A DNA stretch of 64,000 nt, from NCBI GenBank assembly GCA_963717985.1, contig CAVQYC010000003.1:34314-98313 (forward strand), in the 5' to 3' direction. The stretch comes from an uncultured delta proteobacterium. Lineage in GTDB: Bacteria > Desulfobacterota > Syntrophorhabdia > Syntrophorhabdales > WCHB1-27. The first letter of the stretch is position 1; every line of letters starts with the position of its first letter. The position numbers and the translations under genes are program-made. Below, piece after piece: positions 3,324 through 56,200 of the stretch. The notes beneath the pieces were generated by a model that was not told where the DNA came from, did not search any database, and saw only the letters and a list, made by a program, of their open reading frames with translations.

Positions 3324-5699
3324 TTACTGCCGGGCCATCGCGATGCGGATGGCTTCCTCGGGCGAGACCAGATGATCTGCGTTCTCGGCGGCATCGGCTA
3401 TGGCGATCTCCACCCCCTTGACGCGACCGTTGAAGGCGTTGCCGCGCGGGCCGTAGTCTTCAGAGACAGGGGCGCCGGAGTCCTCGCCCACGTCGCAGCC
3501 GTCATCGGCGGAGAAGACCATGGCCAGGGTCATGGGGATGGCCCCTTCGCCGACCTTCTTGCCGTCGGTGTACAGGGTCACCTTGCCGCCCTTGCCCAGA
3601 CCGCCGCCGGCGTAGGCAAACTCCATACGCACCTGGTGCCCACCCGCGGGGATCGGGCTTTCGGCCTCGACGTAGAAGTGCTGCACGCCGCCCAGGTTGT
3701 AGCAATACTTGAGCTTGCCGCCCTTGGCGTAGAGGCTCCAACCGCCGATGTTCGCCCCCTGGGCGATGATCACGCCCTCGGCGCCGGAGGCCGGCACCTC
3801 GATCTCGGCGGTGACGGCGTGGGACTTGTTCTTGATGTTGACGACGCAGTTCTCCGACAGGCGCCCCATGCCGCCGAAGAGAAGTTGGGTCTTCCTCTTG
3901 ATCAGCGTCGGCCGGCCGGCGGTGTCCGGGTTCATGCGCTTCGCGAGATCATCATCGAGGGGCAACACATTGTACTTGACCGCCTCGATGAGCCAGAGGC
4001 GCTGCAGCTCGTGGAGCTTCTCCGGCATCTGCCTGGACAGGTCGTTCGCCTGGCTCCAGTCTTTTTCCGTGTCGTAGAGCTCCCAGACGTCGTCGTCGAA
4101 GGCGGGCGTCTTCTCGCCGATGAGCATCCAGGGCGTCTTGTGCCGCGTTACCGCGGTCCAGCCTTTGTGGTAGATGCCGCGGTTGCCGAACATCTCGAAG
4201 TACTGTGTCTCGTGCCGCTCGGGGGCCTTGGCGTCGTTGAAGGAGTAAAGCATGCTCACGCCCTCGATTGGCCGCTGCTGCACGCCGTTCACCATGATTG
4301 GCTCGGGGAGCCCCGCCACCTCGAGGACCGTGGGCGCTACGTCTATAACATGGTGGAACTGCCACCGCATCTCGCCCTTTGCCTTGATCCCCTTAGGCCA
4401 GTGCACGATGGTGCCGTTGCGCGTTCCGCCCCAGTGCGAGGCGACCTGCTTGGTCCACTGGTAGGGCGTGTCCATGGCGTGTGCCCAGCCAACGGCGTAG
4501 TGGTTGTAGGACTCCGGTCCGCCCAGCTTGTCGATCCGGGCATTGAGGAACTCCGGCGTCTCGACGGCGGCCATGCCGTTGAAGTTAAGCATCTCGTTGA
4601 ACGTGCCGTTGAGCGTACCCTCGGCCGAGGCGCCGTTGTCGCCGATGATGTAGTAGACGAGCGTGTCGTCGAGGATGCCGAGCTTCTCCAGGCCATCGAG
4701 CAGACGGCCCACGTGGTGGTCGGTGTACTCCATGAAGCCCGCGTAGACCTCCATCTGCCGGCGCAGCACGGGCTTGAGCGCCTCCGGCATGTCGTCCCAC
4801 GCGGGGATCTCCTTATGTCGCGCGGTGAGCCGGCAGTCCGCCGGGATCACGCCGAGCTTCTTCTGCCGGGCAAAGGTCTCGTCGCGGAGCCTGTCCCAGC
4901 CCTGGTCGAACTTGCCCTTGTACTTGTCGGCCCATTCCTTGGGCACATGGTGGGGCGCATGGGTTGCGCCGGGCGCAAAGTAAGCGAAGAAGGGTTTGTC
5001 GGGCGCCAGGGCCTTCTGCTGCGAGATCCAGGCCATGGCCTTGTCGGTCATGTCCTCCATGAAGTGGTAGCCCTCTTCGGGCGTCTTCTTCGGCTCTACC
5101 GGCGTGGTACCCTCGTAGAGCGTCGGGTACCACTGATTTGCCTCGCCGCCGAGGAAGCCGTAGAAGTACTCGAAGCCGCCGCCTCCCGTGGGCCAGGCAT
5201 CGAACGGTCCGACCGGGCTCGTCTCCCACACCGGCACCTCGTGGCACTTGCCGAACTGCGCCGTGGAGTAGCCGTTCAGTTTCAGCGTCCGCGCGAGCGG
5301 CGATATGGTGTTGGGCAGCACCGAACTGTAGCCCGGCGCGCCGGTGGCGATCTCGGTGATGCCGCCCATGCCGGCGGAATGGTGGTTGCGCCCGGTCAGA
5401 AGCGCCTGCCGCGTCGGCGAGCAAAGGGCGGTGGTGTGGAAGCGGTTGTACTTCAGGCCGCCTGCCGCCAGCTTCTCCGCGTTCGGCGTCCGGCAGGGGC
5501 CGCCGAAGGCACTGGACGAGCCGAACCCGGCGTCGTCGATGAGGATGAGCAGGACGTTGGGCGCGCCCGCGGGCGGCCGCAACTGCTCAATAGGCGGAAA
5601 CTTCGTGTCAGGATCCTTGGCGTCGTAGGTCGTCAGACCCACGCACGGTTGATCCGGGATAGGAAGAACTGCACGTGAAATATTGTCTTGTGTACTCAT
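3324..5699 (-). CDS. arylsulfatase (large AtsA-like, Cys-type)
   Basis: Contains LLILIDDAGFGSSSAFGG and the formylglycine motif C-S-P-T-R in HTTALCSPTRQALLTGRNHH. I moved the start to ATG 5699 (MSTQDN..), which is preceded by AAGGAGAAA. No signal peptide is obvious. Confidence 0.85.
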   Translation of the reverse strand: MSTQDNISRAVLPIPDQPCVGLTTYDAKDPDTKFPPIEQLRPPAGAPNVLLILIDDAGFGSSSAFGGPCRTPNAEKLAAGGLKYNRFHTTALCSPTRQALLTGRNHHSAGMGGITEIATGAPGYSSVLPNTISPLARTLKLNGYSTAQFGKCHEVPVWETSPVGPFDAWPTGGGGFEYFYGFLGGEANQWYPTLYEGTTPVEPKKTPEEGYHFMEDMTDKAMAWISQQKALAPDKPFFAYFAPGATHAPHHVPKEWADKYKGKFDQGWDRLRDETFARQKKLGVIPADCRLTARHKEIPAWDDMPEALKPVLRRQMEVYAGFMEYTDHHVGRLLDGLEKLGILDDTLVYYIIGDNGASAEGTLNGTFNEMLNFNGMAAVETPEFLNARIDKLGGPESYNHYAVGWAHAMDTPYQWTKQVASHWGGTRNGTIVHWPKGIKAKGEMRWQFHHVIDVAPTVLEVAGLPEPIMVNGVQQRPIEGVSMLYSFNDAKAPERHETQYFEMFGNRGIYHKGWTAVTRHKTPWMLIGEKTPAFDDDVWELYDTEKDWSQANDLSRQMPEKLHELQRLWLIEAVKYNVLPLDDDLAKRMNPDTAGRPTLIKRKTQLLFGGMGRLSENCVVNIKNKSHAVTAEIEVPASGAEGVIIAQGANIGGWSLYAKGGKLKYCYNLGGVQHFYVEAESPIPAGGHQVRMEFAYAGGGLGKGGKVTLYTDGKKVGEGAIPMTLAMVFSADDGCDVGEDSGAPVSEDYGPRGNAFNGRVKGVEIAIADAAENADHLVSPEEAIRIAMARQ

Positions 5700-20217: not shown

Positions 20218-20300
20218 TTTTTAGAAACCTCCTTGCGGGTACAAAAGGTCAGAAAGGTCAGAAAGTCCGGTTTCGTGTGCCCTTTTCAACCTTTTGTACC

Positions 20301-22151
20301 CTATACAGGTTTAAGAATCTCGGGGTTCACGTCGTACACGGTTGACGGTCTTCCCCCCGTGGTCTTTTTCACTGGTTCGCTGATGATATGCCTGGAAGCG
20401 AGAACCTTTAAGGCCGTTTCCAGGCGGCCTATCGTCCTGAACCGGCGATTCTCTTTGATTGCGTCGCTTTGCTTGAACGTCGGTTCCCCTTTTGCCACAA
20501 TCCACTTGAGCACGGCCTTAGCGTCATTACTGGCCGGGTCCTCGTCCATGAGGTCGAACGCGGCCCGCGCATGACAGATAAGAAGCTCGCACAGGTCAAG
20601 GGCGCGCTCCATGGTCGCTCGATTTATGGTAGAGTTCGACGTGCCATGTTCCACAACATAAAACAGCCCGCCGATACGAAGCGCCGCCCCCGGCAATTTG
20701 CTTGTCCAGTCCTGAATGCTGAAATACTCCCCGTCCGCTCCCTGCTTGCTTTCTATGTACTGGCTGAAACGCTGCCATGCCTTCAAGGCATCGGCGGTTA
20801 AAGTCAATATTCTCGGCTGCTCTTGTCCGTGCTCGTCGTAAATGGGGTCTATTGCCAACAGCACCATGATTCCGGCGCGATATCCCGCCCTGACTGATTC
20901 CGGGATAGTACCCCGGCGCATTACGTCCCTGGTCCCTATGGTGCTTGCGGGTAGGCAGTAGAGGAAGCGGGCAAGCGTCCCGTTTCCGCGAAAGTGTTTC
21001 TTGCGGCCTTCCGCGAGGTCAACTATTATGTCCGTCTGCACGGCAAGACCGAAAGATAGCGCCGGTTTATTCAGCGTGACGGTACGCCCCTGTCGATCAA
21101 CCCGGACCGGCGAGCCTGCGTGTCCTTGTAGGAAGACATTGAGGTTTGCCCGGCCATTGGTGTAAAGCCCTGCCATCACCTCGAATATCCCGCCCTCATC
21201 GGATAAGAGCGCCATGCGCTCGCTATTTTCCGCCATGAGAGCTTGCAACCGCTCCGGGGTAACGTCGTCAGTCCATACTCTCGGGGGCCTTATCTCGTCG
21301 GGGGTTTCATCCTCAATCCGTGTGATGCCCCGTATTGCGCTCTCCCTCTCATCGTCCGGCGTGTCTGGCTTCGCGGCCCTTGCCTTCAACTGGTCGATCC
21401 GCTTAAGATTGATGTCTCGCCGGTGGTTGACTTCCTTGATCTTCGGTTTAAGTTCCTCGGCCTGGTCGTTTTCCCACAAGGTCAACGGTTCGGCCATGGC
21501 GTTCTTGACGGCTGTCTTCCTGTTGCCGGGGTCCAAAGCGGTAACAGTCCAAAGGGCCAAGGGTTCCCTGTAATCATCGGCGTAAGGTGAAACCTCGAAG
21601 CGTTTTTGAAGACATGCCGCAACCGTGGACAGAGCAAACATGACGGCCATCCCCGACGGTGTCTGTGTGGCCTGCGTGACGGCCTGGCAATAATCCCCCA
21701 GGTAGCCGGGCAAGAGGGTACTTGGTAGGTCCGGCGTCTCTATGTCGCCGAAAAGGAGAGGTTCGGGCCATTCCTCATCCGTGTTTACCCTGCCCGCGCT
21801 CTGCTTCGGCCCTTCCATGAAGGCTGCAAGGCTATCATCTCCACTTATGATCTTCCGCGCTTCGTTCCATGTGTGCCCCTGACAGCTATCGTGGAAACAT
21901 TTGTAAAGAAGCTGGCCGCCCGCCGTTTGAAGGATTCCCGCGCCTTTGTGCCCCTGGTCAAAAAGGCAACCATCCGAAAGGACGTAGAGCGTGCCTGCCG
22001 TGATCGTCTTGACCGTGTATGCTCTCCCATAGTGATCGAGGTACGCAGCCACGTCGAGACGGGCCTTGCCGTCGTCCGCCTGTTTCGGCGGCTCCTGCTC
22101 GGGGAACATGGCCCGTGCCCGCTCCATCGCCTCTGCGCTCATGGTGCTCAT
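20301..22151 (-). CDS. DUF3987 (YfjI-like) replicative helicase-like protein with an N-terminal Cys/His zinc module
   Basis: 616 aa. The N-terminus has ..CLFDQGHKGAG..YKCFHDSCQGHTW.., and the central/C-terminal region matches the DUF3987 architecture seen next to primases in integrative elements (recall). Its start overlaps the primase stop by 4 nt. Confidence 0.6.
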   Translation of the reverse strand: MSTMSAEAMERARAMFPEQEPPKQADDGKARLDVAAYLDHYGRAYTVKTITAGTLYVLSDGCLFDQGHKGAGILQTAGGQLLYKCFHDSCQGHTWNEARKIISGDDSLAAFMEGPKQSAGRVNTDEEWPEPLLFGDIETPDLPSTLLPGYLGDYCQAVTQATQTPSGMAVMFALSTVAACLQKRFEVSPYADDYREPLALWTVTALDPGNRKTAVKNAMAEPLTLWENDQAEELKPKIKEVNHRRDINLKRIDQLKARAAKPDTPDDERESAIRGITRIEDETPDEIRPPRVWTDDVTPERLQALMAENSERMALLSDEGGIFEVMAGLYTNGRANLNVFLQGHAGSPVRVDRQGRTVTLNKPALSFGLAVQTDIIVDLAEGRKKHFRGNGTLARFLYCLPASTIGTRDVMRRGTIPESVRAGYRAGIMVLLAIDPIYDEHGQEQPRILTLTADALKAWQRFSQYIESKQGADGEYFSIQDWTSKLPGAALRIGGLFYVVEHGTSNSTINRATMERALDLCELLICHARAAFDLMDEDPASNDAKAVLKWIVAKGEPTFKQSDAIKENRRFRTIGRLETALKVLASRHIISEPVKKTTGGRPSTVYDVNPEILKPV

Positions 22152-23923: not shown

Positions 23924-24048
23924 TTTCGTTTCACCTCTCCTCGTTCCTGAAAGAACAGGCAGACGCCGGAGATTGCGTTTTTCGGCCCGTCGGCCTATCT
24001 CCCTTTTCAACCTTTCTGACCTTTTGTACCCTATACAGGGTTTCGCTT

Positions 24049-25451: not shown

Positions 25452-25472
25452 TAAAAAAGCTCCCCGGGCAGG
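25452..25472. repeat. proximal att repeat (attL) overlapping the tRNA-Asn 3' end
   Basis: aaaaaagctccccgggcagga. See the 18263-18280 feature for its partner. Confidence 0.6.
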
Positions 25473-25532
25473 ACTCGAACCTGCAACCTACTGGTTAACA
25501 GCCAGCCGCTACTGCCGATTGAGCTACCGGGG
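25459..25532 (-). tRNA. tRNA-Asn (anticodon GUU), CCA not encoded
   Basis: Folded by hand into a 74-nt cloverleaf. Acceptor TCCCCGG/CCGGGGA; anticodon stem GCTGG/CCAGT with loop CT-GTT-AA; T arm GCAGG-TTCGAGT-CCTGC; discriminator G. The D stem has only 3 bp. Confidence 0.9.
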
Positions 25533-25573
25533 AAACGATTACAGTAAACACGAAAAACGGCAGAATGTCAATA

Positions 25574-29127: not shown

Positions 29128-29446
29128 GGTCCCCCCTTCAGTAGAACCTGAAGGGACAGCACGAGGGTCGAATTTTCTAAGTCACGGGTGACAAGTTATG
29201 CCCCAACCTCCGAAAAGTCAGAAAACTATTTATATTGAGCTGCTGCTTCCCCGTTACTGCCCCTAAAGAATAGCCCCGCGATGCCGTGTAAACAGTAAGT
29301 CTTGAACCTCTCAAGATAAGTGGGCGCCTTTTTCTTGCTTCACGCGTCTCGCACTCAGACGAGCATGCAGTCTGCAATAAGAGAAGGCTCCCCGCAAAGA
29401 GGTGTTGGCTCGAAGTTTACCATTTATCACGCACACCGCAGGGAAT

Positions 29447-29704
29447 CTATACGTTTTCAACCTTTCTCAAGAGCCTCAGCGTGTTGTCTTCGACTTTCTC
29501 GAACCGCTCCTTCATATCCATGTAGTTATCGGCAACCCTCATCATTGCCATGATAACCGTATTCAGCGTGTTTACGATCCCAAATTCCTGCGCCACCCCC
29601 GCTATTTCCTGGTCGACGAACCGGGCGACTTTTCTGATCTTCTCCTCATCATCACCAACGAAAGTAAATGACTGATTGAGTATAGTGACTTCCACTCTGT
29701 GCAA
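29447..29704 (-). CDS. zapA: cell division protein ZapA
   Basis: 85 aa. VEVTILNQSFTFVGDDEEKIRKVARFVDQEI.. is a typical ZapA. Confidence 0.8.
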   Translation of the reverse strand: MHRVEVTILNQSFTFVGDDEEKIRKVARFVDQEIAGVAQEFGIVNTLNTVIMAMMRVADNYMDMKERFEKVEDNTLRLLRKVENV

Positions 29705-29994: not shown

Positions 29995-31069
29995 GCCTTG
30001 ATGAACTGGTCAAGGTCTCCGTCGAGCACGCTTTCAGCGTTATGCACCTCCAGTTTTGTGCGGTGGTCCTTGATAAGCTTGTAGGGATGGAGCGTGTACG
30101 AGCGGATCTGGCTACCCCATGAAATGTCCTTCTTCTCCTTGTTCAGCAGGTCCATCTTCTCATCCTGCTTCTTCTTCTCCAGCCGCATAGACCCTTGACT
30201 TCAAAATGGCCATAGCGATGGCCTTGTTCTTGTGCTGCGACCGCTCGTTCTGGCACTGAACCACTATGTTGGTCGGCAAATGGGTGATCCGTATGGCCGA
30301 TTCCGTCCTGTTGACGTGCTGTCCCCCGGGTCCGCTCGCGCGGAAGGTGTCGATCTTCAAGTCCTCATCCCGGATGTCAACCTGAATGCTCTCCGGGATC
30401 TCCGGATAGGCATAGACCGAGGCAAACGACGTGTGTCTCCTGGCATTCGCGTCGAAAGGCGAGATACGCACGAGGCGATGAATCCCGTTCTCGCACTTCA
30501 GGTAGCCATAGGCATACGCGCCTTTTACGAGGAACGTGACGTTCTTGATGCCCGCCTCTTCTCCGGGCAGCAGGTCGACAACCTGCGACTCGAACCCCTT
30601 CCTCTCCGCCCACTTGAGGTACATGCGCAGGAGCATTTCCGCCCAGTCCTGCGCCTCTGTTCCTCCAGCCCCGGCGTTTATATACATGATGGCGCTTTCC
30701 TCGTCATTCTCCTCGGCGAGCATCCGCTCTATCTCGAACCTGTTAAGCTCGGCGTCGAGGGTCTCGACCCGGCGCTCCAGCTCTCCGATGTCTCCGGGGT
30801 CCCCTGCCTCTTTTGCGAAGTCACTCAGAATAAGGATCTCCTCCAGCTCCGTCTCCTTGCTCTCCCAGCGCTGCACCTCGTCCTGCAGCCTGGCCCTTTC
30901 CCGGAGCAGCTTCTGCGCCTTTTCCTGGTCTTCCCAAAAGTCTTTTTGCGCTAGGGTTTGATCGTACTCGCTGATGCGCGCTTTGAGGGCAGGTGCGTCA
31001 AAGATAACCTCTGAGCGCCTGCATGCGGTCGATAAGCGTATCCGTTCTCGCTTTTATGTCATCTATCAT
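29955..31069 (-). CDS. prfB: peptide chain release factor 2, with the programmed +1 frameshift plus one additional unexpected frameshift near 30185
   Basis: [26 protein letters not shown], then the +1 frame reads [14 protein letters not shown]..., with SPF (RISPFD) and GGQ (GPGGQHVN) motifs. ..AILKSRVY is then cut off, and the sequence continues in another frame as [35 protein letters not shown]... Confidence 0.9.
30997..31012 (-). promoter_or_regulatory. prfB programmed +1 frameshift site with an internal SD-like element
   Basis: The minus strand reads AGAGGT TAT CTT TGA C. Compare E. coli AGGGGG TAT CTT TGA C. Confidence 0.85.
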
Positions 31070-31157
31070 GATTGCACCACCATCTTTCGGTTATGGCCGC
31101 TCCCGTCTTTCCAGGGAAGCGCCTTTGTCGCTCCTTTTCCGCTTTACAGCGGCCCCG

Positions 31158-31214
31158 TTATTCCTCGGCTTTGGTGAGATCCTCAAACTTAATATCCAGC
31201 CCCAGGACCGCCAC
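31158..31214. repeat. 57-bp perfect second copy of the last 18 codons plus stop of the 31294..33105 gene
   Basis: 31158-31214 is identical to 31294-31350. Both copies start with the stop-codon complement tta. Confidence 0.95.
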
Positions 31215-31293
31215 ATACAATTACCGGGGTTCAGCACCCCCTCCATCGGCGGAGCCGCCGGAGCCTCCCCGCTCACAAAGCATGAAAAAAGCC
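31215..31293. repeat. GC-rich intergenic repeat element, copy A (79 bp)
   Basis: atacaattaccggggttcagcaccccctccatcggcggagccgccggagcctccccgctcacaaagcatgaaaaaagcc. It aligns with copies at 33119, 48652 and 56157 (reverse complement). Confidence 0.9.
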
Positions 31294-33105
31294 TTATTCC
31301 TCGGCTTTGGTGAGATCCTCAAACTTAATATCCAGCCCCAGGACCGCCACTATCTCTCCGGTCTCGTCATGTATCGGGCCTGAAACGGTAATACAGAGGG
31401 CGCCGGTTATTCTTGACGTGTAGAGACCCGTCACCGATATCCTGCCGGTCGAGAGCGGCTGGATGAACCAATCCCTGTCCGAGAAATCTTCATGCAGGTC
31501 TATCTTGGCGTACTTTGCCCTGTCCACCGCCTGGGTGATGTTCCTGGTGACCTTCACTCCTTCCGCGTTGACCACATAAGCAAACTGTATGTACGGGTAC
31601 TCGGCCACGAGTCCCTTGAGCACCCCTTCCTGCCGCTCGGGCTCCATGCTCTTTATATCATCCTCTTCGATATAGCGCTCGATCAGATGGGCGGCCATAT
31701 CGTGGGCACTCTTCTTCAGCATATCGAATTCGGACGGGAAGACTTCGGGCATGTACCGGCGGACCATATGTTCCATCTCCTCGTCAGACATGGCGGTCAC
31801 CCTGCCCTCCTCATACTGCTTCAGAATCCGCTTGTTTATCCTTGCGACACCCGGATGGGTTTTTTCAATTGCGTCCTCTCCGATCAGGGCAAAATGGGAA
31901 TTGATCCAGTGGGCTATGCCTGCAAGGCCTGATTTGTCGGTGAGATTTATCGTTATCGGCCTGTTGAGTATTCTCTTTGTGTCGAAGGCGGTATATATCT
32001 CCTCGTTTTTTGCGAGCCCGTCGATGTGGACGCCGGCGGAGGTCGCATTGAAATCCGAGCCGACAAACGGTTGATTTCGGGGTATGTGGAGACCCACCTC
32101 CTTCTCGAAATAATTCCTCATCTCCGTAATCACCTTGGTATCGATCCCGTTGTCATCGCCGACGAGCGAGATATACTCCATAATAAGCGCCTCTATGGGG
32201 GTGTTCCCTGTTCGTTCCCCCATGCCCAGAAGGGCGCCGTTTACGAACGTGCACCCGTAGAGCCATGCACTCACCGCGCCGACCACTCCCCTGTAGAAAT
32301 CGTTATGTCCGTGCCATTCGAGGCAATCGGAAGGTACACCGGCATCATCGATCATGGCCCTGATGATCTTTCCCACGGAGCGCGGCAAGGCGGCCCCAGG
32401 ATAAGTAATACCGAGACCGAGGGTGTCGCACAACCGTATCTTTATGGGTATCTTCGCCTCTTCCGACAGGGACATGAGGGCCTGTGCAAAGGGCACACAA
32501 AACCCGTAAATATCGGCCCTCGTCACGTCTTCAAAATGACACCGCGGCATGATGCCGGCATCGAGAGCCGCCTCAACGACTTTCAAATAACCCTTGAATA
32601 CCTCGGCCCTCGTTTTGTGAAACTTGTAGAATATGTGATAATCGGAAATGCTCGTGAGCATACCTGTCTCTTTCAGGCCGAAATCCTTCACAAGCTGCAG
32701 ATCTTCCTTGCTGGCCCGAATCCAACCCGTAATTTCCGGATACCGATATCCTTTTTCGAGGCATTTCGTCACCGCTTCCTTGTCCTTCTCGGTGTAGAGA
32801 AAAAACTCGGATTGACGTATCACCCCGTTCGGCCCGCTCAACCGGTGGAGAAGATTGAAAATGTCCTCGATCTGTTTTACAGAGAAAGGGGGCCTCGCTT
32901 GCTGGCCGTCCCTGAAGGTCGTGTCCGTGATGAAGATCTCGTCAGGGGGGTCTATTGACTCGATCTTGTGGTCGAAACTGACCCTTACCATATCGGTATA
33001 GGGGAACACGTTCCGGAAAAGCTCGGGCTCTTTCACATCGATGAGCGGGAACCTGGTGCTCTTTACCGTATTCTTGAAGATAAAACCTTTCCGCTTTTTC
33101 GCCAA
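31294..33105 (-). CDS. HMGL-family acyl-CoA:2-oxoacid condensing enzyme (homocitrate/isopropylmalate/Re-citrate-synthase-like) fused to a C-terminal Cache/PDC-like domain
   Basis: Contains ITDTTFRDGQQA, ..EWHGHNDF.. and GERTGN (DRE-TIM metallolyase motifs). The last ~120 aa read ..DRDWFIQPLSTGRISVTGLYTSRITGALCITVSGPIHDETGEIVAVLGLDIKF, the Cache_1-type signature. TTG start at 33105. Confidence 0.7.
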   Translation of the reverse strand: MAKKRKGFIFKNTVKSTRFPLIDVKEPELFRNVFPYTDMVRVSFDHKIESIDPPDEIFITDTTFRDGQQARPPFSVKQIEDIFNLLHRLSGPNGVIRQSEFFLYTEKDKEAVTKCLEKGYRYPEITGWIRASKEDLQLVKDFGLKETGMLTSISDYHIFYKFHKTRAEVFKGYLKVVEAALDAGIMPRCHFEDVTRADIYGFCVPFAQALMSLSEEAKIPIKIRLCDTLGLGITYPGAALPRSVGKIIRAMIDDAGVPSDCLEWHGHNDFYRGVVGAVSAWLYGCTFVNGALLGMGERTGNTPIEALIMEYISLVGDDNGIDTKVITEMRNYFEKEVGLHIPRNQPFVGSDFNATSAGVHIDGLAKNEEIYTAFDTKRILNRPITINLTDKSGLAGIAHWINSHFALIGEDAIEKTHPGVARINKRILKQYEEGRVTAMSDEEMEHMVRRYMPEVFPSEFDMLKKSAHDMAAHLIERYIEEDDIKSMEPERQEGVLKGLVAEYPYIQFAYVVNAEGVKVTRNITQAVDRAKYAKIDLHEDFSDRDWFIQPLSTGRISVTGLYTSRITGALCITVSGPIHDETGEIVAVLGLDIKFEDLTKAEE

Positions 33106-33118
33106 CTCCTCCCCCTAG

Positions 33119-33193
33119 CAATTATTGGGGCTCAGCGCCCCCTCCTCGGCGAAGCCTCGGAGCCTCCCCGCTCGGCTCGCTTCGCTCGATTAT
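33119..33193. repeat. GC-rich intergenic repeat element, copy B
   Basis: caattattggggctcagcgccccctcctcggcgaagcctcggagcctccccgctcggctcgcttcgctcgattat. Its tail abuts the aspS stop codon at 33194. Confidence 0.9.
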
Positions 33194-34954
33194 CTATTCC
33201 TTCGTCACCCTCAGCCTCAGGTCGCTGAGCTGCCTCGGCTTAACCGGTGCCGGAGCGCCGGACAGCAGACAGGTGCCCTTCTGCGTCTTTGGGAACGGGA
33301 TCACGTCCCTTATGCTGTCGAGGCCCAGGAGCATCATCAGGATGCGGTCGATCCCGAAAGCAAAGCCCCCGTGGGGAGGTGCGCCCATCTCCAACGCTTC
33401 GAGGAGAAAACCGAACTGCTCGACGGCCTCTTCTTCCTTGAAGCCGAGGAGCTTGAACATCTCCATCTGCTCGTCTTTCCGGTGTATCCTGATGCTGCCC
33501 CCGCCAATCTCCGCCCCGTTCAGCACGAGGTCGTACGCCTTTGCCTGCATCGATTCGTAGTCGCCGCCGAATTCCTGAATGCTGCCTTTCGGCGACGTAA
33601 ACGGGTGATGGCGGGCAACATACCTTTTCTCTTCCGCGCTGTATTCAAAGAGCGGGAAATTGACGACCCACAGGAAAGAGTCGTCGCCTTTCCTCACGAG
33701 GTCGTACTTCTCTCCGAGATAGAGGCGAAACCTCCCCATGATATCGTTTACTTTAGCGCGCGCATCGGCCATAATGAAAAGCACGTCGCCGTCCGCGAGG
33801 CCGCATCGCGCGTCTATGGCCGCGGTCTCCTCTTCCTTCAGGTACTTCACTATGGGCGACACGAGCTTCCCCGCATCCTTGCGCATCCAGATGAGGCCGC
33901 CCGCGCCGAGGGTCTTCGCCGTGTCGACGGCTGTGTCGAGGTCTTTCCGGGAAAGGGACCTGGACTTCAGCGCAATGCCCTTTATGGCCCCTCCATTGCC
34001 CACAACGTTCTTGAACACGCCAAATTCAGTCGACCGGAACAACGGGGTCAGCTCTTCCATGGGCAGATCGAACCTGAGGTCGGGCTTATCCGTCCCATAA
34101 CGCTCCATCGCCTCGGAATAATCCATCCGTCTGAAAGGACCGGCAAGGGGCGTTTTCTTTATCGATTCGTAAAGCACAGCCATGGCGCCCTCAACTAACG
34201 CGATGACGTCTTCCACATCCACAAAGCTCATCTCCAGATCGAGCTGGGTGAACTCCGGCTGCCGGTCCGCCCTCAGGTCTTCATCCCTGAAGCATCGCGC
34301 CAACTGGAAGTATTTTTCAAAACCCGCTACCATCAGTATCTGCTTGAAGAGCTGGGGTGATTGCGGAAGCGCGTAAAACTGGCCCTGATTCAACCTGCTC
34401 GGGACGATGAAATCGCGAGCCCCCTCAGGTGTGCTCTTGGTGAGAAAAGGCGTCTCGATCTCGAAAAAGCCCTGCGACGACAGGTAGCTCCGCACTGCCA
34501 TCCCCGCCGCGCTCCGCAGGATAAACGTCTCCCGCACCTTCGGGCGGCGCATGTCCAGGTACCGATACTTCAATCTGAGGAACTCATTCGGCTCCTCTTC
34601 GGTATCGAGCTCGTCGACCTGGAAAGGCAGAGGCTTGCAGGTGTTGAGTACCGTAAGGGTGGAAACGAGCACCTCGATTCCTCCCGTGGGGATATTGGGG
34701 TTCTCCGTGCCTTCGGGCCTCGGCGCTACCGTGCCTTCGATGCGGATCACATACTCCTGCTTGATCTCATGCGCTTCCTTATGGGCGACAGGGGCTATCT
34801 CGGGAGAGAAGACCACCTGCACAATGCCGCTCACATCCCTCAGATCGAGGAAGATGAGACCGCCGTGATCGCGTCTTCTGAACACCCATCCCGCCAGCTC
34901 TACGCTCATTCCCACATCGACTACCGAGAGCGTTCCACAGTACCGGTTTCTCAA
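33194..34954 (-). CDS. aspS: aspartate--tRNA ligase
   Basis: ..RYCGTLSVVDVGMSVELAGWVFRRRDHGGLIFLDLRD.. and class II motifs (..FRDEDLRADRQPEFTQLD.., ..GGGSIRIH..). I chose the TTG start at 34954, 6 nt after GGAGGAGG, and discarded the 78-aa ORF-track extension. 586 aa. Confidence 0.9.
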   Translation of the reverse strand: MRNRYCGTLSVVDVGMSVELAGWVFRRRDHGGLIFLDLRDVSGIVQVVFSPEIAPVAHKEAHEIKQEYVIRIEGTVAPRPEGTENPNIPTGGIEVLVSTLTVLNTCKPLPFQVDELDTEEEPNEFLRLKYRYLDMRRPKVRETFILRSAAGMAVRSYLSSQGFFEIETPFLTKSTPEGARDFIVPSRLNQGQFYALPQSPQLFKQILMVAGFEKYFQLARCFRDEDLRADRQPEFTQLDLEMSFVDVEDVIALVEGAMAVLYESIKKTPLAGPFRRMDYSEAMERYGTDKPDLRFDLPMEELTPLFRSTEFGVFKNVVGNGGAIKGIALKSRSLSRKDLDTAVDTAKTLGAGGLIWMRKDAGKLVSPIVKYLKEEETAAIDARCGLADGDVLFIMADARAKVNDIMGRFRLYLGEKYDLVRKGDDSFLWVVNFPLFEYSAEEKRYVARHHPFTSPKGSIQEFGGDYESMQAKAYDLVLNGAEIGGGSIRIHRKDEQMEMFKLLGFKEEEAVEQFGFLLEALEMGAPPHGGFAFGIDRILMMLLGLDSIRDVIPFPKTQKGTCLLSGAPAPVKPRQLSDLRLRVTKE

Positions 34955-35085: not shown

Positions 35086-35319
35086 ATGAAAACCGTGCAA
35101 ATGACCTTGGATGAGGACTTGGTAAAAGAAGTCGACCTTCTTGCAAAAGAGCTGAACACGACAAGATCAGCCTTAACGCGGGCGGCACTCCGTGCGGCGA
35201 TAAAGGATATCAAAATAAGACGCCTCGAAGAAAAGCATCGGGCCGGATATGAATGCCGCCCGGTGACAAAGGAAGAGTTCGGCGTGTGGCACGATGAGCA
35301 GGCCTGGGGTGGAGAGTGA
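35086..35319 (+). CDS. ribbon-helix-helix (CopG/MazE-like) antitoxin
   Basis: MKTVQMTLDEDLVKEVDLLAKELNTTRSALTRAALRAAI is a classic RHH. It overlaps the toxin start by 4 nt. Confidence 0.75.
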   Translation: MKTVQMTLDEDLVKEVDLLAKELNTTRSALTRAALRAAIKDIKIRRLEEKHRAGYECRPVTKEEFGVWHDEQAWGGE

Positions 35320-35627
35320 AACGGGGAGACATCCGGTGGTATACGTTCAAGTCTCCCGACAAGAAGCGGCCGGTACTTCTTCTGACCCGCAATTCCGTCA
35401 TCGCCTATCTTAACGAAGTCACCATAGCTCCGATCACGTCTACGGTGAGAGAAATACCAAGCGAAGTCCGTCTGGACGAAGGTGATGGCATGCCCGGGGA
35501 GTGTGCCGTAAACGCCGACCACATTCAGACGGTGCCGAAGGATCGGATAGGGAAGCTCATCACTGCGCTTGCGCCTGAGAAGCTCGCCGAAGTCGGGAGG
35601 GCAGTAAGATTCGCCATCGATCTTTGA
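35316..35627 (+). CDS. mazF: PemK/MazF-family endoribonuclease toxin
   Basis: MKRGDIRWYTFKSPDKKRPVLLLTRN..VTIAPITST..PSEV.. is a MazF-fold signature. 103 aa. Confidence 0.8.
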   Translation: MKRGDIRWYTFKSPDKKRPVLLLTRNSVIAYLNEVTIAPITSTVREIPSEVRLDEGDGMPGECAVNADHIQTVPKDRIGKLITALAPEKLAEVGRAVRFAIDL

Positions 35628-48596: not shown

Positions 48597-48651
48597 CTAC
48601 GCGCCCTTTCCCCCTACGATAATCTCAGGCATTCTCAGCGTCGGCTGGGCG
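48597..48651. repeat. 55-bp perfect second copy of the tldD 3' end (last 17 codons plus stop)
   Basis: 48597-48651 is identical to 48729-48783. Both copies start with the stop-codon complement cta. Confidence 0.95.
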
Positions 48652-48728
48652 CAATTACTGGGGCTAGCGTCGCCCCCTCCACCGGCGGAGCCGTCGGAGC
48701 CTCCCCCTCAAAGAAAAGCTATACCAGT
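48652..48728. repeat. GC-rich intergenic repeat element, copy C (77 bp)
   Basis: caattactggggctagcgtcgccccctccaccggcggagccgtcggagcctccccctcaaagaaaagctataccagt. Confidence 0.9.
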
Positions 48729-50108
48729 CTACGCGCCCTTTCCCCCTACGATAATCTCAGGCATTCTCAGCGTCGGCTGGGCGTCCGCCACTGGCACGCC
48801 CTGCCCGTCTTTGCCGCAGGTGCCGATGCCGAAGCCTAAGTCATTGCCCACCATATCGATATCCTTCAATGCCTTCGGGCCGTTTCCCATCATAGTGGCA
48901 TTCCTCACCATGGGCCCGACCTGCCCCTTCTCGATCAGGTACCCCTCCTGTATCTCGAAGACGAAATCGCCGCGGACCGTATCTACCTGGCCTCCTCCCA
49001 TCTTCCTGACCAGAAGGCCGCTGTCGACGGAAGCGATGATGGCGTCCGGGTCATCGAAGCCGGGGAGGATCAGGGTATTGCTCATGCGCGGGATGGGTTT
49101 GTAGCGAAAGGATTCGCGCCTCCCGTTCCCTGTCGACGAATAACCGTATTTCATCGCATGAAAGCGGTCGAAAAGATAGTTTTTCAAGACGCCCTGCTCG
49201 ACGAGCAGGGTCCTCTCGGAGACCGTTCCTTCATCATCGTAGGCATAGGTGCCTCTTCGATGCGGGAGCGTCTTGTCGTCAACGATGCTGACGAGGGGGT
49301 TCGCTATCGATTGGCCGAGCATCCCTTTGTAGCAGGAAAGCCCTTCCATGGCAAGGTCCGCCTCCAGGCCATGGCCGATGGCCTCGTGTATCATGGTGCC
49401 CCCGGCCTCTGATGCGAGCACTACCGTCTTCGTACCCATGGGTGCCTCGCATGCGCCCAGCAGCCCGGACAACCTCGCCACGGTCGCCCTGACAAACGTC
49501 TCTATCCGTTCCTCGGTGAGAAACTCGAAGCCGCAAAACCCGCCTATCGCCTCGTAAGCGGTTTGCAGGACCCCTGCCTCTTCGCCCACCACAAGCAGGG
49601 TCACGACGAGCTGCGTCCTCTTGTCTTCCACCCTGGTCCCGTCGCTCGCGGCAACCCTGACGTGCTGGCTCGTATCCCGGTAGAATACCTTCACCTGTGT
49701 GATCCTCTTCTCCATCTTCCGGGCCATGTCTCCAATGGAGCGGACGACGTCGAGCTTCTCATGTGTGTCCACGTCGCCCGGCGGGACCGCGATGAGAAAC
49801 GGGTAACGCGCCGTGTGGAGACTCCCTGCCTGCACCCCGCCCGGCCCACTTGCGCCCTGCGCGGTGCGGACCAGCTCTTTCGAGAGATCGACCAAATGAC
49901 TCTCCTCCCGGGAATTGGTGGAGGCGAAGAAGGTTTGCCAGGGCCTTATCACCCTTAACCCCACACCGCTGTCCACACCCTTTTCCAGCTTCTCTATCTT
50001 CTCCGATTCGAGTTGGATCTGTGTGGATGCCGTCTCTTCCTCAAACGTCTCCGCATAAAGCACGTCCCCGGCCGAAAGGGCCGCCAGCACCTTCGTCTCA
50101 TCAAACAT
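48729..50108 (-). CDS. tldD: TldD-family metalloprotease
   Basis: 459 aa. HEAIGHGLEAD (HExxxH) and the C-terminal ..GTCGKDGQGVPV... Confidence 0.85.
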   Translation of the reverse strand: MFDETKVLAALSAGDVLYAETFEEETASTQIQLESEKIEKLEKGVDSGVGLRVIRPWQTFFASTNSREESHLVDLSKELVRTAQGASGPGGVQAGSLHTARYPFLIAVPPGDVDTHEKLDVVRSIGDMARKMEKRITQVKVFYRDTSQHVRVAASDGTRVEDKRTQLVVTLLVVGEEAGVLQTAYEAIGGFCGFEFLTEERIETFVRATVARLSGLLGACEAPMGTKTVVLASEAGGTMIHEAIGHGLEADLAMEGLSCYKGMLGQSIANPLVSIVDDKTLPHRRGTYAYDDEGTVSERTLLVEQGVLKNYLFDRFHAMKYGYSSTGNGRRESFRYKPIPRMSNTLILPGFDDPDAIIASVDSGLLVRKMGGGQVDTVRGDFVFEIQEGYLIEKGQVGPMVRNATMMGNGPKALKDIDMVGNDLGFGIGTCGKDGQGVPVADAQPTLRMPEIIVGGKGA

Positions 50109-51302: not shown

Positions 51303-51436
51303 ATCTCCCGCTCCCCGCTCAATTCCCGGGGCTCGCGTCGCCCCCTCCATGAGCAAGCTCATGGAGCCACCCCCTCATAAAAAGGAAGATACATTTGGCG
51401 CTTCATGCTGACCACTCCCGTGTTTCATGAACCTTT

Positions 51437-56086: not shown

Positions 56087-56156
56087 GCGCCAACGTGTGC
56101 CTGCTTTTTTTGTGGGCACCCCGCCTGTCGCCCGTGGCCTGTACGAAGCGGGTCGT

Positions 56157-56192
56157 GGCTTCGCCGAGGAGGGGGCGCTGAGCCCCAATAAT
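56157..56192. repeat. GC-rich intergenic repeat element, copy D core (reverse orientation)
   Basis: ggcttcgccgaggagggggcgctgagccccaataat is the exact reverse complement of 33122-33157. The divergent tail extends left to about 56088, right behind the mreB stop. Confidence 0.9.
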
Positions 56193-56200
56193 AAACAGCG

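Follow-up and report, generated by a model that had tools for sequence, protein, structure and literature searches.

The 64,000-nt stretch of DNA analysed here (the window) contains a 79-nt repeat placed directly behind the stop codon of a protein gene and bracketed by two perfect copies of the last 57 nt of that gene. The 79-nt repeat belongs to a family of non-autonomous mobile repeats, and the bracketing copies are very probably a target duplication generated by the insertion of this mobile element. The best explanation, to which we assign a probability of roughly 0.6, is a target duplication left by copy-in insertion of a transcript-oriented non-autonomous element, anchored at the 3' end of the element.

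Gene ends duplicated around a dispersed repeat

The gene at the first site (site A) is a minus-strand open reading frame of 603 aa (31294..33105) that ends in ..VAVLGLDIKFEDLTKAEE before its stop codon, and its product carries the Pfam domains HMGL-like and dCache_1. Comparison of the window sequence with itself showed that 31158-31214 and 31294-31350 are 57-mers with 100% identity whose starts are 136 nt apart; no chance match of 57 nt is expected in 64 kb. A second, independent structure with the same X-element-X layout (X being the duplicated gene end) was found behind the TldD gene (site B), where the copies 48597-48651 and 48729-48783 (55 nt, 100% identity) enclose a 77-nt element. The features of the two sites and the other element copies in the window are as follows, H1 and H2 being the hairpins of the element.

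31070..31157, minus strand: original spacer from the HMGL stop to the prfB start (ATG at 31069-31067)
31158..31214, minus strand: orphan copy of X at site A, 57 nt, followed by the original downstream spacer
31215..31293, minus strand: inserted element at site A, 79 nt, member of the dispersed repeat family
31293-31266, minus strand: 28-nt 5' module of the site A element in gene sense, GGCTTTTTTCATGCTTTGTGAGCGGGGA
31265-31219, minus strand: core of the site A element in gene sense, GGCTCC-H1-GGAGGGGG-H2-CCCCGGTAATT
31218-31215, minus strand: tail of the site A element in gene sense, GTAT
31294..31350, minus strand: gene copy of X at site A, the final 18 codons plus TAA of the HMGL-like/dCache gene, identical to 31158-31214
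33118..33193, minus strand: element copy between the aspS stop codon (33194-33196) and the ribosome-binding site of the HMGL gene
48597..48651, minus strand: orphan copy of X at site B; together with the 6 nt that follow and a convergent 61-aa gene, it aligns collinearly with the L133 empty site
48652..48728, minus strand: inserted element at site B, 77 nt, consisting of the 5' module ACTGGTATAGCTTTTCTTTGAGGGGGA and the core
48729..48783, minus strand: gene copy of X at site B, the terminal 55 nt of the TldD gene (48729..50108) with its TAG
51318..51395, minus strand: element copy between rsmA/ksgA and an HGD-D family gene, without a long flanking duplication
56110..56193, plus strand: long element variant between mreB and mreC, with an extra hairpin in place of the 5' arm of H1

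The upstream copy at site A is functional and keeps the HMGL/dCache gene intact, whereas the downstream copy has no function and is a remnant attached, as before, to the original spacer and to prfB, which has the +1 frameshift site CTTTGAC. In gene sense the junctions read ..GAATAA/element/GTGGCGG..GAATAA/CGGGGCC, and the boundary of the duplication lies exactly at the stop codon. The layout given in the preliminary description, with a perfect 57-bp repeat, the true 3' end of the HMGL-Cache gene on the right, an orphan copy on the left and a 79-bp member of a dispersed family between them, was therefore accurate in all parts. The family has exactly five copies in the window (31217-31275, 33118-33173, 48651-48712, 51319-51379, and 56156-56192), compared with 0.03 copies of its motif expected by chance. 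The copy at 33118..33193 is bracketed by TAG...TAG, possibly a 3-nt duplication of the aspS stop codon.

Filled and empty sites were found among relatives. At the TldD site, the window, L135, and L138 carry an insert, whereas L133, L134, and L137 have none. In L133, which carries an 87% TldD ortholog, the TAG is followed by 8 nt and the stop of the convergent gene, an arrangement collinear with the orphan copy and flank in the window. The spacer between aspS and the HMGL gene is 9–10 nt long in relatives (element-free in L126-L129) versus 88 nt, including the element, in the window. At site A, the spacers between the HMGL gene and prfB of 83–94% orthologs lack the duplication, and in the closest HMGL ortholog (94%) the stop is followed by no more than the 5' remnant of an element. 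A clean empty allele of site A would read ..GAGGAATAA joined to CGGGGCCGCTG directly after the gene; none was found among the orthologs compared, and a search of JGI metagenomes for this X-to-D junction gave 0 matches. Comparison with related genomes, suggested in the preliminary description, thus supplied a clean empty site in the TldD case (L133) and, for site A, only spacers free of the duplication. Since the orthologous spacers lack the duplication and the TldD empty site is clean, the comparison indicates that the duplication is the derived state. The window and L135 have an identical left boundary in TldD with different elements, which could reflect a site preference, or common descent with homogenisation.

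Recurrence of the layout in other genomes

About 20 further X-element-X cases were identified in at least nine other Syntrophorhabdales MAGs, built by Flye, MEGAHIT (k141), and other assemblers. The flanking duplications found were 61, 57, 56, 55, ~50–54, 48, 47, 43, 38, 33, 33, 30, 25, 25, 24, 21, 16, 12, 11, and 3 nt long, so that a range from 3 to 61 nt or more occurs within one element family. The earlier statement that the duplication (57 nt at site A, up to 61 nt or more elsewhere) far exceeds the target duplications of classical transposases is supported. A match of at least 10 nt directly after AATTG was present in 29 of 133 element copies and at a shifted control position in 9 of 133. 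A 16-nt "duplication" in L026 proved to be the remnant of a second tRNA-Pro-like gene rather than a target duplication and was left out.

The lengths of 55 and 57 nt are near a common maximal k of short-read assemblers, and the preliminary description had warned that the structure could be a de Bruijn graph loop at k = 55. This concern did not hold. The site A structure is present in four contigs from at least three assemblies, including independent NCBI assemblies and the 811-kb "contig_8217" of the ERZ250395xx series, the Nanopore/metaFlye assemblies of Microflora Danica; three further assemblies have an identical site B. The two copies in L002 are distinguishable, since the gene copy and the orphan differ at three synonymous positions. 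Elsewhere the shortest duplication measures 3 nt and the longest at least 61 nt, with lengths of 48 and 30 nt in MEGAHIT contigs built at k141, and the four junction types allow the X-element-X layout only. The artefact reading is refuted for practical purposes, and the duplication is real biology because the layout recurs ~20 times with varying copy length. Annotators of Syntrophorhabdales genomes should treat as genuine the orphan gene ends and (X-element)n-X arrays that follow stop codons, and should neither "polish away" these structures nor call them pseudogenes.

The far junction lies at offsets of -14, -4, -1, -1, 0 (seven times), +3, +4, +4, +6, +6, +15, +19, and +27 from the end of the stop codon; nine of the 19 scored junctions are at -1 or 0. 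A start precisely at the stop codon, as noted in the preliminary description, is therefore exact at site A and a strong tendency, not a rule, in the family. Selection could force this position in tight operon junctions, but selection alone seems insufficient because space is not limiting at sites A and B or in L021. An 80-nt element can enter operon junctions of 6–10 nt harmlessly because it duplicates the stop codon of the flanking genes and, in some cases, their ribosome-binding site and start too. Cruciform or hairpin targets, as for Yersinia YPAL, were not detected, the duplicated segments folding like shuffled sequences (mean z of -0.1).

Two patterns point towards homology-driven integration, either Campbell-style from a small circle, as considered in the preliminary description, or a fragment, each carrying the element and gene-end homology, or through DNA from another strain that joins by homology at one end and illegitimately at its other end. 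L002 matches the window perfectly in element, orphan copy, and flank, yet its gene copy and upstream gene are ~5% diverged; at the stop codon, it is the orphan copies of L138, L135, L122, and L082 that look ancestral, not the gene copies. This explanation is nevertheless highly improbable. Some duplications are just 3–16 nt long, far under the need of RecA-type recombination, which makes Campbell integration of a tiny circle unlikely; a double-stranded circle of 130 nt is also sterically unfavourable. Events with duplications below 20 nt already seem to be recent, which speaks against homology-driven integration. Moreover, an illegitimate joint would not hit the exact 3' end of the element in ~20 independent events.

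In L138, a different small repeat has an X-repeat-X layout too. The duplication may therefore belong to a host process rather than to this element.

Element anatomy and a possible mode of insertion

The conserved unit of the family is ~56–58 nt long and reads (T)GAG(C/G)GGGGA-GGCTCC-(hairpin H1, 10 bp)-GGAGGGGG-(hairpin H2)-CCCC-NNN-AATTG(C), with variable 5' modules upstream. The inserts are modular, non-coding, and 56–130 nt long. Their 3' end is sharp (AATTG in 97%, C in 64%), with 0–3 extra nt at the junctions that follow it, and their 5' end is ragged. Perfectly duplicated copies of one subfamily, few in number, form a 5' truncation series from ATGCTTT(T)GTGAGCGGGGA.. through TTATGAGCGGGGA.. 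(L086) to GCGGGGA.. (L021, a 56-nt insert), and every insert opens with 9–13 nt found in no other insert. An apparent match of the 5' filler of the L006 insert to the window was rejected as a k-mer merging artefact together with a chance 13-mer match in aspS. The cores combine with differing 5' modules. Because the cores are mosaic, later decay or recombination among copies could contribute partly to the 5' raggedness. Microhomology-driven joints were also rejected, since only 0–1 nt of microhomology was found at the 3' junction and none was obvious at the 5' junction. The sharp 3' end, the 5' truncation series, the 5' nucleotides unique to each insert, the joining of cores to differing 5' modules, and the 0–1 nt microhomology are signs of 3'-anchored copying.

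Between co-directional genes, as delimited by a codon-bias gene caller, 51 copies are in sense and nine in antisense orientation. Pairing in H1 is retained across 90 distinct inner sequences, with 375 Watson-Crick, 51 G·T, and 5 A·C pairs on the sense strand, and its mean MFE is -15.2 versus -7.3 for shuffled sequences; H2 shows covariation from C-G to T-A. The G·U pairs of the two covarying hairpins occur on the gene-sense strand only. The element thus appears to be adapted to the transcript and read in the mRNA sense, and the orientation together with the G·U pairs suggests its co-transcription with the upstream gene. Through this family a conserved two-hairpin RNA module is placed in hundreds of 3' UTRs and intercistronic spacers. 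At the gathering threshold, Rfam returned only 6S RNA and one tRNA for the window, a permissive Rfam scan of the element locus gave no credible family, and no canonical intrinsic terminator or promoter was found at the element.

These properties are consistent with the following course of 3'-anchored copy-in insertion. The template strand would acquire a 3'-OH between 3 and >60 nt upstream of the stop codon, the distance varying from case to case, and this 3'-OH would serve as the primer for copying the element, beginning at its fixed 3' terminus (..AATTG/C, plus 0–3 extra nt). Copying would halt or switch at a variable 5' point, the far junction would be made at, or a few bases from, the stop codon, and repair synthesis would leave the target duplicated. 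At site A, the element entered directly behind the HMGL/dCache stop codon, and its insertion very probably duplicated the 57 nt of target up to and including this codon. Later, unequal exchange between the direct repeats could turn the structure into (X-element)n-X arrays or precisely remove it. Such arrays, with direct units, are formed by the family, and the duplications are ready substrates for precise excision and copy-number variation.

The template would most likely be the element RNA, in a reaction resembling target-primed reverse transcription on a 3'-UTR fragment. The fixed 3' end, 5' truncation, and variable duplication of TPRT-type retroposons were all found here. That the reaction is RNA-mediated and target-primed is a tentative proposal, held at somewhat below even odds; its prior is low because, to our knowledge, group II introns are the only target-primed retroposons in bacteria. 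If it is RNA-mediated, the family would be a new class of bacterial retroelement. In a more specific and quite unlikely version, the elements would be bacterial SINE-like retroposons, i.e., structured 3'-UTR RNA fragments reverse-transcribed from a chromosomal 3'-OH in the last codons and coupled to translation termination. The 3' end of the RNA would be defined, ..AAUUG/C, ~8 nt past H2; the 5' joint would be made at the stop codon, perhaps when synthesis jumps to an mRNA that has been cleaved or shortened at the terminating ribosome, and the gene end would be duplicated through this joint. If true, a bacterial RNA other than an intron would be undergoing target-primed retroposition, tied to translation termination.

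Replication or repair template switching (fork stalling, MMBIR-like) would require no dedicated enzyme: a nascent strand would depart from the gene end, copy an ectopic element, and re-enter the original template upstream of its exit, which yields X-element-X. The stable element hairpins could stall forks, ectopic templates are many (five copies per 64 kb), cores and modules are mosaic, tandem arrays exist, and the layout around a different repeat in L138 would also fit. We regard it as distinctly improbable. Its junctions typically have 2–6 nt of microhomology versus 0–1 nt here, exit is always at the exact 3' end of the element, entry clusters at the stop codon, which DNA polymerase does not sense, and there is a strong orientation bias to transcription.

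Relation to known repeats and mobile elements

By analogy, the closest precedent is Yersinia YPAL, which reportedly inserts closely downstream of stop codons. In the summary of De Gregorio et al. 2006 by Delihas 2008, YPAL/RU-2 elements are described as making variable target duplications of 3–26 bp, as being co-transcribed with the upstream gene, and as having targets at or near gene ends and dyad symmetries (PMC2229807). The preliminary view that no described mechanism gives such a structure was therefore overstated, since the variable duplications beside gene ends in this summary (PMC2229807) are comparable. The elements share several traits: both are small non-coding intergenic repeats that are not AT-rich, lack TA ends, and have internal hairpins, and the variable-length duplication and insertion next to gene ends also apply to the element described here. 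YPAL is ~168 bp long, while the present elements are modular and 56–130 nt long. As summarised there, YPAL also differs in that duplications here reach 55–61 nt and more and extend into coding sequence, versus 3–26 bp, that the targets here have no dyad-symmetry signal, and that the ragged 5' end, sharp 3' end, and (X-element)n-X arrays are features of the present family.

YPAL/RU-2 also supports DNA-level transposition by a trans-acting transposase or integrase whose strand transfers occur at no fixed distance, gap repair with a very flexible stagger giving the duplication. Strand transfer without a fixed distance is presumed for YPAL/RU-2. These elements lack TA ends, contain internal inverted repeats, give duplications of 3–26 bp, and lie beside gene ends and dyad symmetries (PMC2229807). 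The comparison of empty and filled sites suits simple insertion with duplication, and the conserved 56–58-nt unit has recognisable ends. This explanation is a serious one, but unlikely. Known transpososomes fix the distance, whereas duplications of 3 to >60 nt occur in one family; recent, perfectly duplicated copies vary in 5' extent and have unique 5' nucleotides; inspection of the element consensus revealed no terminal inverted repeats; and the strong sense-strand RNA signatures are unneeded, though selection could add them. Copy-in insertion anchored at the 3' end, our preferred reading, may also explain the variable duplications of YPAL.

REP sequences are high-copy extragenic hairpins that often abut coding regions, and their GTAG ends often provide a TAG stop (PMC3733652). 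REP/BIMEs, mobilised by RAYT Y1/HUH enzymes, resemble the present family as high-copy extragenic hairpins with a proposed role at the mRNA level. A 20–40-nt palindrome with a GTAG/CGTC head was rejected as the identity of the element, since the consensus has two distinct hairpins and no such head. Its arrays are direct and its copies strongly co-oriented with genes (51:9) rather than alternating inverted pairs, and, unlike this family, REPs leave no target duplication.

Non-LTR retroposons and SINEs have a fixed 3' end, a variable or truncated 5' end, extra junction nucleotides, and variable duplications, as found here, and a structured mobile RNA, as proposed here; they are eukaryotic, and the resemblance is anatomical only. 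Mycobacterial interspersed repetitive units (MIRU) are likewise 40–100-nt intergenic operon units, oriented with genes, touching stop and start codons, and forming direct tandem arrays; we know of no description of them as hairpin elements or with duplicated gene ends. Insertion sequences of the IS1202 group (ISNCY) make target duplications of up to ~24–29 bp, unusually long for bacteria, but, unlike the present element, they are autonomous, with a transposase, inverted repeats, and a fixed duplication length per subgroup.

Other candidates were rejected. Filled and empty sites among relatives, as for a classical MITE, were seen for TldD and the aspS-HMGL spacer, but the 5' end (T)GAGCGGGGAGGCTCC does not recur in inverted form as the 3' end GCCCCAATAATTGC, the hairpins are internal, and the duplications are not short and fixed but range from 3 to 61 nt or more in one family. 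A diversity-generating retroelement does not fit identical copies and housekeeping target genes, the neighbours being aspS, prfB, zapB, and zapA, with no reverse transcriptase (RT). Duplication of an integrase att site does not fit non-coding inserts of 56–130 nt and repeats down to 3–16 nt, and both the anatomy and the neighbours are wrong for a CRISPR-like array. No characterised bacterial transposition pathway explains the combination of a sharp 3' and ragged 5' end, microhomology-free joints, duplications of 3 to >60 nt, a joint at the stop codon, and sense-strand RNA constraints.

A literature search for repeats in Syntrophorhabdus found nothing. As far as sampled, the element family is limited to Syntrophorhabdales-type MAGs. 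Viral contigs yielded one match, L136, apparently host DNA that carries two ordinary element copies.

Duplicated gene ends at two sites of the window

The 57-mers at 31158–31214 and 31294–31350 (site A) are identical and spaced 136 nt apart, which confirms the perfect duplication reported in the preliminary description. The right copy is the true gene end, as proposed there, and comprises the last 18 codons and TAA of the following gene:
31294..33105, minus strand, HMGL-like/dCache_1 gene, a 603-aa ORF with HMGL-like and dCache_1 domains

In the gene sense, the site reads ..GAGATA / GTGGCGG..GAGGAATAA / 79-nt element / GTGGCGG..GAGGAATAA / CGGGGCCGCTG.., that is, gene end (X), element, orphan copy of X (X-element-X), and prfB starts 88 nt past the orphan copy. 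The insert does belong to the dispersed hairpin family, which has five copies in the window at a chance expectation of 0.03 for the motif. Other features of the window are:
30160–31069, minus strand, prfB (release factor 2), with a programmed +1 frameshift site CTTTGAC; ORF callers make two pieces of it
29269–29447, minus strand, 6S RNA (Rfam RF00013, 85.6 bits), downstream of zapA/zapB
25460–25533, minus strand, one tRNA gene
about 35315–35627 (also L001:479–1020, a homologous locus), PemK/MazF-type toxin and RHH antitoxin pair, divergent from aspS and adjoining the site A locus

A second case, missing from the preliminary description, was found at the end of the TldD gene (site B), where 48597–48651 and 48729–48783 are identical (55 nt) and enclose a 77-nt family member. 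Here too the gene end, including TAG, is the right copy, and the site is identical in ERZ25039509 and GCA_052916025.1.

The suspicion that the duplication reflects an assembler k of 55 did not hold, and an assembly artefact is ruled out for practical purposes. Four contigs, from three or more assemblies, encode the exact HMGL protein and all have X-element-X, including the 811-kb 'contig_8217' of ENA assembly ERZ25039528. Contig_23100 of the sister accession ERZ25039486 is identical to contig CAWEPK010000008.1 of MFD02138.bin.2.11, and the MFD MAGs are metaFlye/Medaka assemblies of Nanopore reads (PMC12313526); judging by accession series and contig naming, ERZ25039528 presumably belongs to the same set. 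In L002 (the homologous locus in GCA_052915825.1), the gene and orphan copies have three synonymous differences and are thus distinguishable, yet they are laid out as X-element-X. Finally, no k accounts for the duplication lengths in other genomes; across the family, perfect duplications run from 3 to 61 nt. The element, orphan copy and flank of L002 match the window: within the gene part (L002:4445–4551), 6 of 107 columns differ, each silently, and no difference occurs in the 244 columns that follow (element, orphan copy, spacer, prfB start). This locus represents either a recombination breakpoint at the gene/element border or a strain chimaera in the metagenome contig.

Comparison of orthologous loci revealed an empty site B in L133 (87% TldD ortholog), reading TAG-CCTTTCTC-TTA; the final TTA is the stop codon, in reverse complement, of a 61-aa gene that runs convergently. 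The window orphan copy and flank, TAG-CTTCTA-TCA followed by the same small gene, are collinear with it. The TldD end is empty in three lineages (L133, L134, L137) and filled in the window, L135 and L138. The L135 insertion has the same left boundary as in the window and an element of another subfamily; the two may be independent or of common descent. In L138 (2178–2270; JGI 3300035696 Ga0374055_0027548), a different small repeat (..CCCGAAGGGACGGTCGTCCGTCGTCCATGAGCC) lies behind the TldD stop, and after it comes an orphan gene end, about 21 nt long, matching the gene end of relative L137. A motif similar to this repeat, GGTCGTCCGTCGTCCAT, occurs downstream of the L021 insertion site.

The HMGL–prfB spacers of orthologs with 94, 88, 85 and 83% protein identity are 31, 158, 41 and 139 nt long, respectively, and none of the four contains the duplication. 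A clean empty allele of site A was not found among them, since the closest ortholog (L123/L124) retains only a 5′ remnant of an element, AGCTTTTGTGAGCGGGGAGGCCGGG.., behind its stop. The aspS-HMGL copy of the window is absent from relatives, where the spacers are 9–10 nt; it reads TAG / element / TAG-GGGGAGGAG-TTG, sitting exactly behind the stop with a duplication of at most 3 nt. As judged by these sequence comparisons, the sites represent a derived, insertion-type state.

Duplications in other genomes

A pattern scan with one genome per species yielded at least 119 loci. Among the matches listed, nearly all were from Syntrophorhabdales or MAGs labelled 'delta proteobacterium', Syntrophaceae or Syntrophus, and a few were labelled Nitrospirota or other. 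Direct repeats of ≥10 nt starting 0–4 nt after AATTG flanked 29 of 133 copies; at a control offset the count was 9 of 133.

Table. Hand-curated insertion events among the matches listed, from at least nine MAGs (assemblers Flye, MEGAHIT (k141) and others). L numbers, loci in other genomes or metagenomes; b, duplication end relative to the stop-codon end, gene sense.
Locus; X (nt); b; remark
L021; 61; 0; insert only 56 nt
Window site A; 57; 0
L023; 56; +27; four units
Window site B; 55; 0
L135; 50–54; -4; two units
L056; 48; +19
L122; 47; -1; TAG in gene copy, TAA in orphan
L015; 43 (52 with one mismatch); +4
L014; 38; not given; nested event
L046; 33; +3
L047; 33; not given; insert is core only
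L097; 33 perfect (~70 imperfect); +6
L052; 30; +15; X includes stop, ribosome-binding site and start of next gene
L086; 25; +4
L082; 25; -1/0; three units
L020; 24; +6; three tandem elements
L064; 21 perfect (~48 imperfect); 0
L033; 16; 0; two units
L022; 12; 0
L006; 11; -14; new C-terminus supplied by insert
Window aspS copy; 3; 0
L005; ~100, imperfect; unscored

Once an element is inserted, the flanking direct repeats would allow expansion to (X-element)n-X arrays, as in L023, L033, L082 and L135, or easy precise loss. The four units of L023 (6560–7090) differ by only 1–2 nt at the joint of 5′ module and core (gagCTcgag / gag-gcgag / gagGTcgag / gag-Tcgag), a difference that could stem from untemplated nucleotides added in separate events, or from errors in the Nanopore consensus.

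Junctions and structure of the element

The 3′ end of the element is sharp: AATT is followed by G (97% of copies) and C (64%), after which the sequence is unrelated. In duplicated copies the orphan X begins 0–4 nt after AATTG, with a possible overlap of 0–1 nt. The 5′ end is ragged, because copies of one subfamily that are recent, as their perfect duplications imply, start at different points of the same module (..ATGCTTT(T)GTGAGCGGGGA in site A, L043 and L089; TTATGAGCGGGGA in L086; GCGGGGA in L021). The first 9–13 nt of each insert are unique to it.

The joint was originally placed precisely at the stop codon. This is true of site A, and 9 of 19 scored events lie at -1 or 0, while the others range from -14 to +27. 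At tight operon junctions, selection would force such a joint. Sites A, B and L021 have 6–88 nt of spacer, and a long duplication tolerates many positions; it is therefore likely from the sequences that the 5′ joint is mechanistically tied to the stop codon, or else to RNA or the ribosome at that position. Duplicated segments fold no better than shuffles, which rules out cruciform targets.

The conserved unit is (T)GAG(C/G)GGGGA-GGCTCC-H1-GGAGGGGG-H2-CCCC-NNN-AATTG(C), where H1 and H2 are hairpins, preceded by alternative 5′ modules such as cttcctttttaTGAggggg, cgagcgaagcgag..TGAgcgggga and gcccgcacagcgggcgagaagggga. Near-identical cores carry different modules, so element copies are mosaic. 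A long variant has GGCTCCA replaced by ~24 nt with an extra hairpin (CGACCCGCAAGCGGGTGCCCCGA or CGGGGCACCCGCGCAGCGGGTCGT) in place of the H1 5′ arm, and is often in tandem with a short copy having the same H1 3′ arm:
56110–56193, long element variant, also in L015, L020, L043, L121 and L123

H1 has 90 distinct inner sequences, which preserve its 10-bp stem, with a mean MFE of -15.2 kcal/mol versus -7.3 for shuffled inner sequences; H2 alternates between GGGGC..GCCCC and GGGGT..ACCCC. Sense-strand pairs of H1 are 375 Watson-Crick, 51 G·T and 5 A·C. G·T thus outnumbers A·C ten to one, which shows that the fold is under selection on the gene-sense strand, that is, as transcript or sense single-stranded DNA. 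Between co-directional genes, 51 copies are sense and 9 antisense (simple codon-bias gene caller). Neither a matching Rfam family nor a canonical terminator was found at the element. At many loci its 3′ end, ..CCCCAATAATTG, reads TAA-TTG in one frame and is an annotation trap: mechanical ORF lists often begin the downstream gene at this TTG, and 18 downstream 'gene starts' were placed at -2.

Route of insertion and relation to known repeats

The combination of sharp 3′ end, ragged 5′ end and variable duplication is of the kind that target-primed, polymerase-driven copy-in generates, as in non-LTR retroposons; it does not arise from a transpososome that recognises two ends and keeps a fixed stagger. 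Since the junctions fit such copy-in, we favour a copy-in reaction anchored at the 3′ end, with the element's RNA as the probable template, at a probability of about 0.35. A DNA transposase or integrase, whose stagger would have to be flexible, is a somewhat weaker candidate and rather unlikely. Replication template switching is considered improbable, and homology-driven integration very improbable.

MIRUs are intercistronic, co-oriented and tandem, a habit common to this family. A classical MITE, a DGR and an integrase att site were ruled out, as the element lacks defining features of each. Closest in behaviour are the Yersinia YPAL/RU-2 repeats, described as having no TA ends, internal inverted repeats, target duplications of 3–26 bp, targets at gene ends and dyad symmetries, and co-expression with upstream genes (PMC2229807). 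REP elements likewise abut or supply stop codons (PMC3733652), but differ in structure and arrangement and have no duplications. We file the family as a variant of the MITE/REP-like 'small structured intergenic repeat'. It is set apart by very long, very variable target duplications running into coding sequence, by the sharp 3′ and ragged 5′ ends and by the stop-codon joint.

In L026 (reverse strand, 4285–4560), an element copy comes after tRNA-Pro(CGG) and before a fragment of a second tRNA-Pro-like gene, which begins at the anticodon stem; the element seems to have taken the place of the 5′ portion of a tandem tRNA. Another dispersed hairpin repeat, CACCCCTCACCCCGCCCTCTCCCCCA(A)GGGGCGAGGG, occurs in Syntrophorhabdales spacers (L129:3316–3360; L022:5510–5560, as part of a composite insert; also L016, L071 and L007). 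A third, CCTTTTGTACCCTATACAGG(T/G)TT, is present in the window as two direct copies separated by 3.7 kb (20237–20312 and 24002–24044) and an inverted partial copy, GGGTACAAAAGGTCAGAAAGGTCAGAAAG, and may be an operator or promoter motif.
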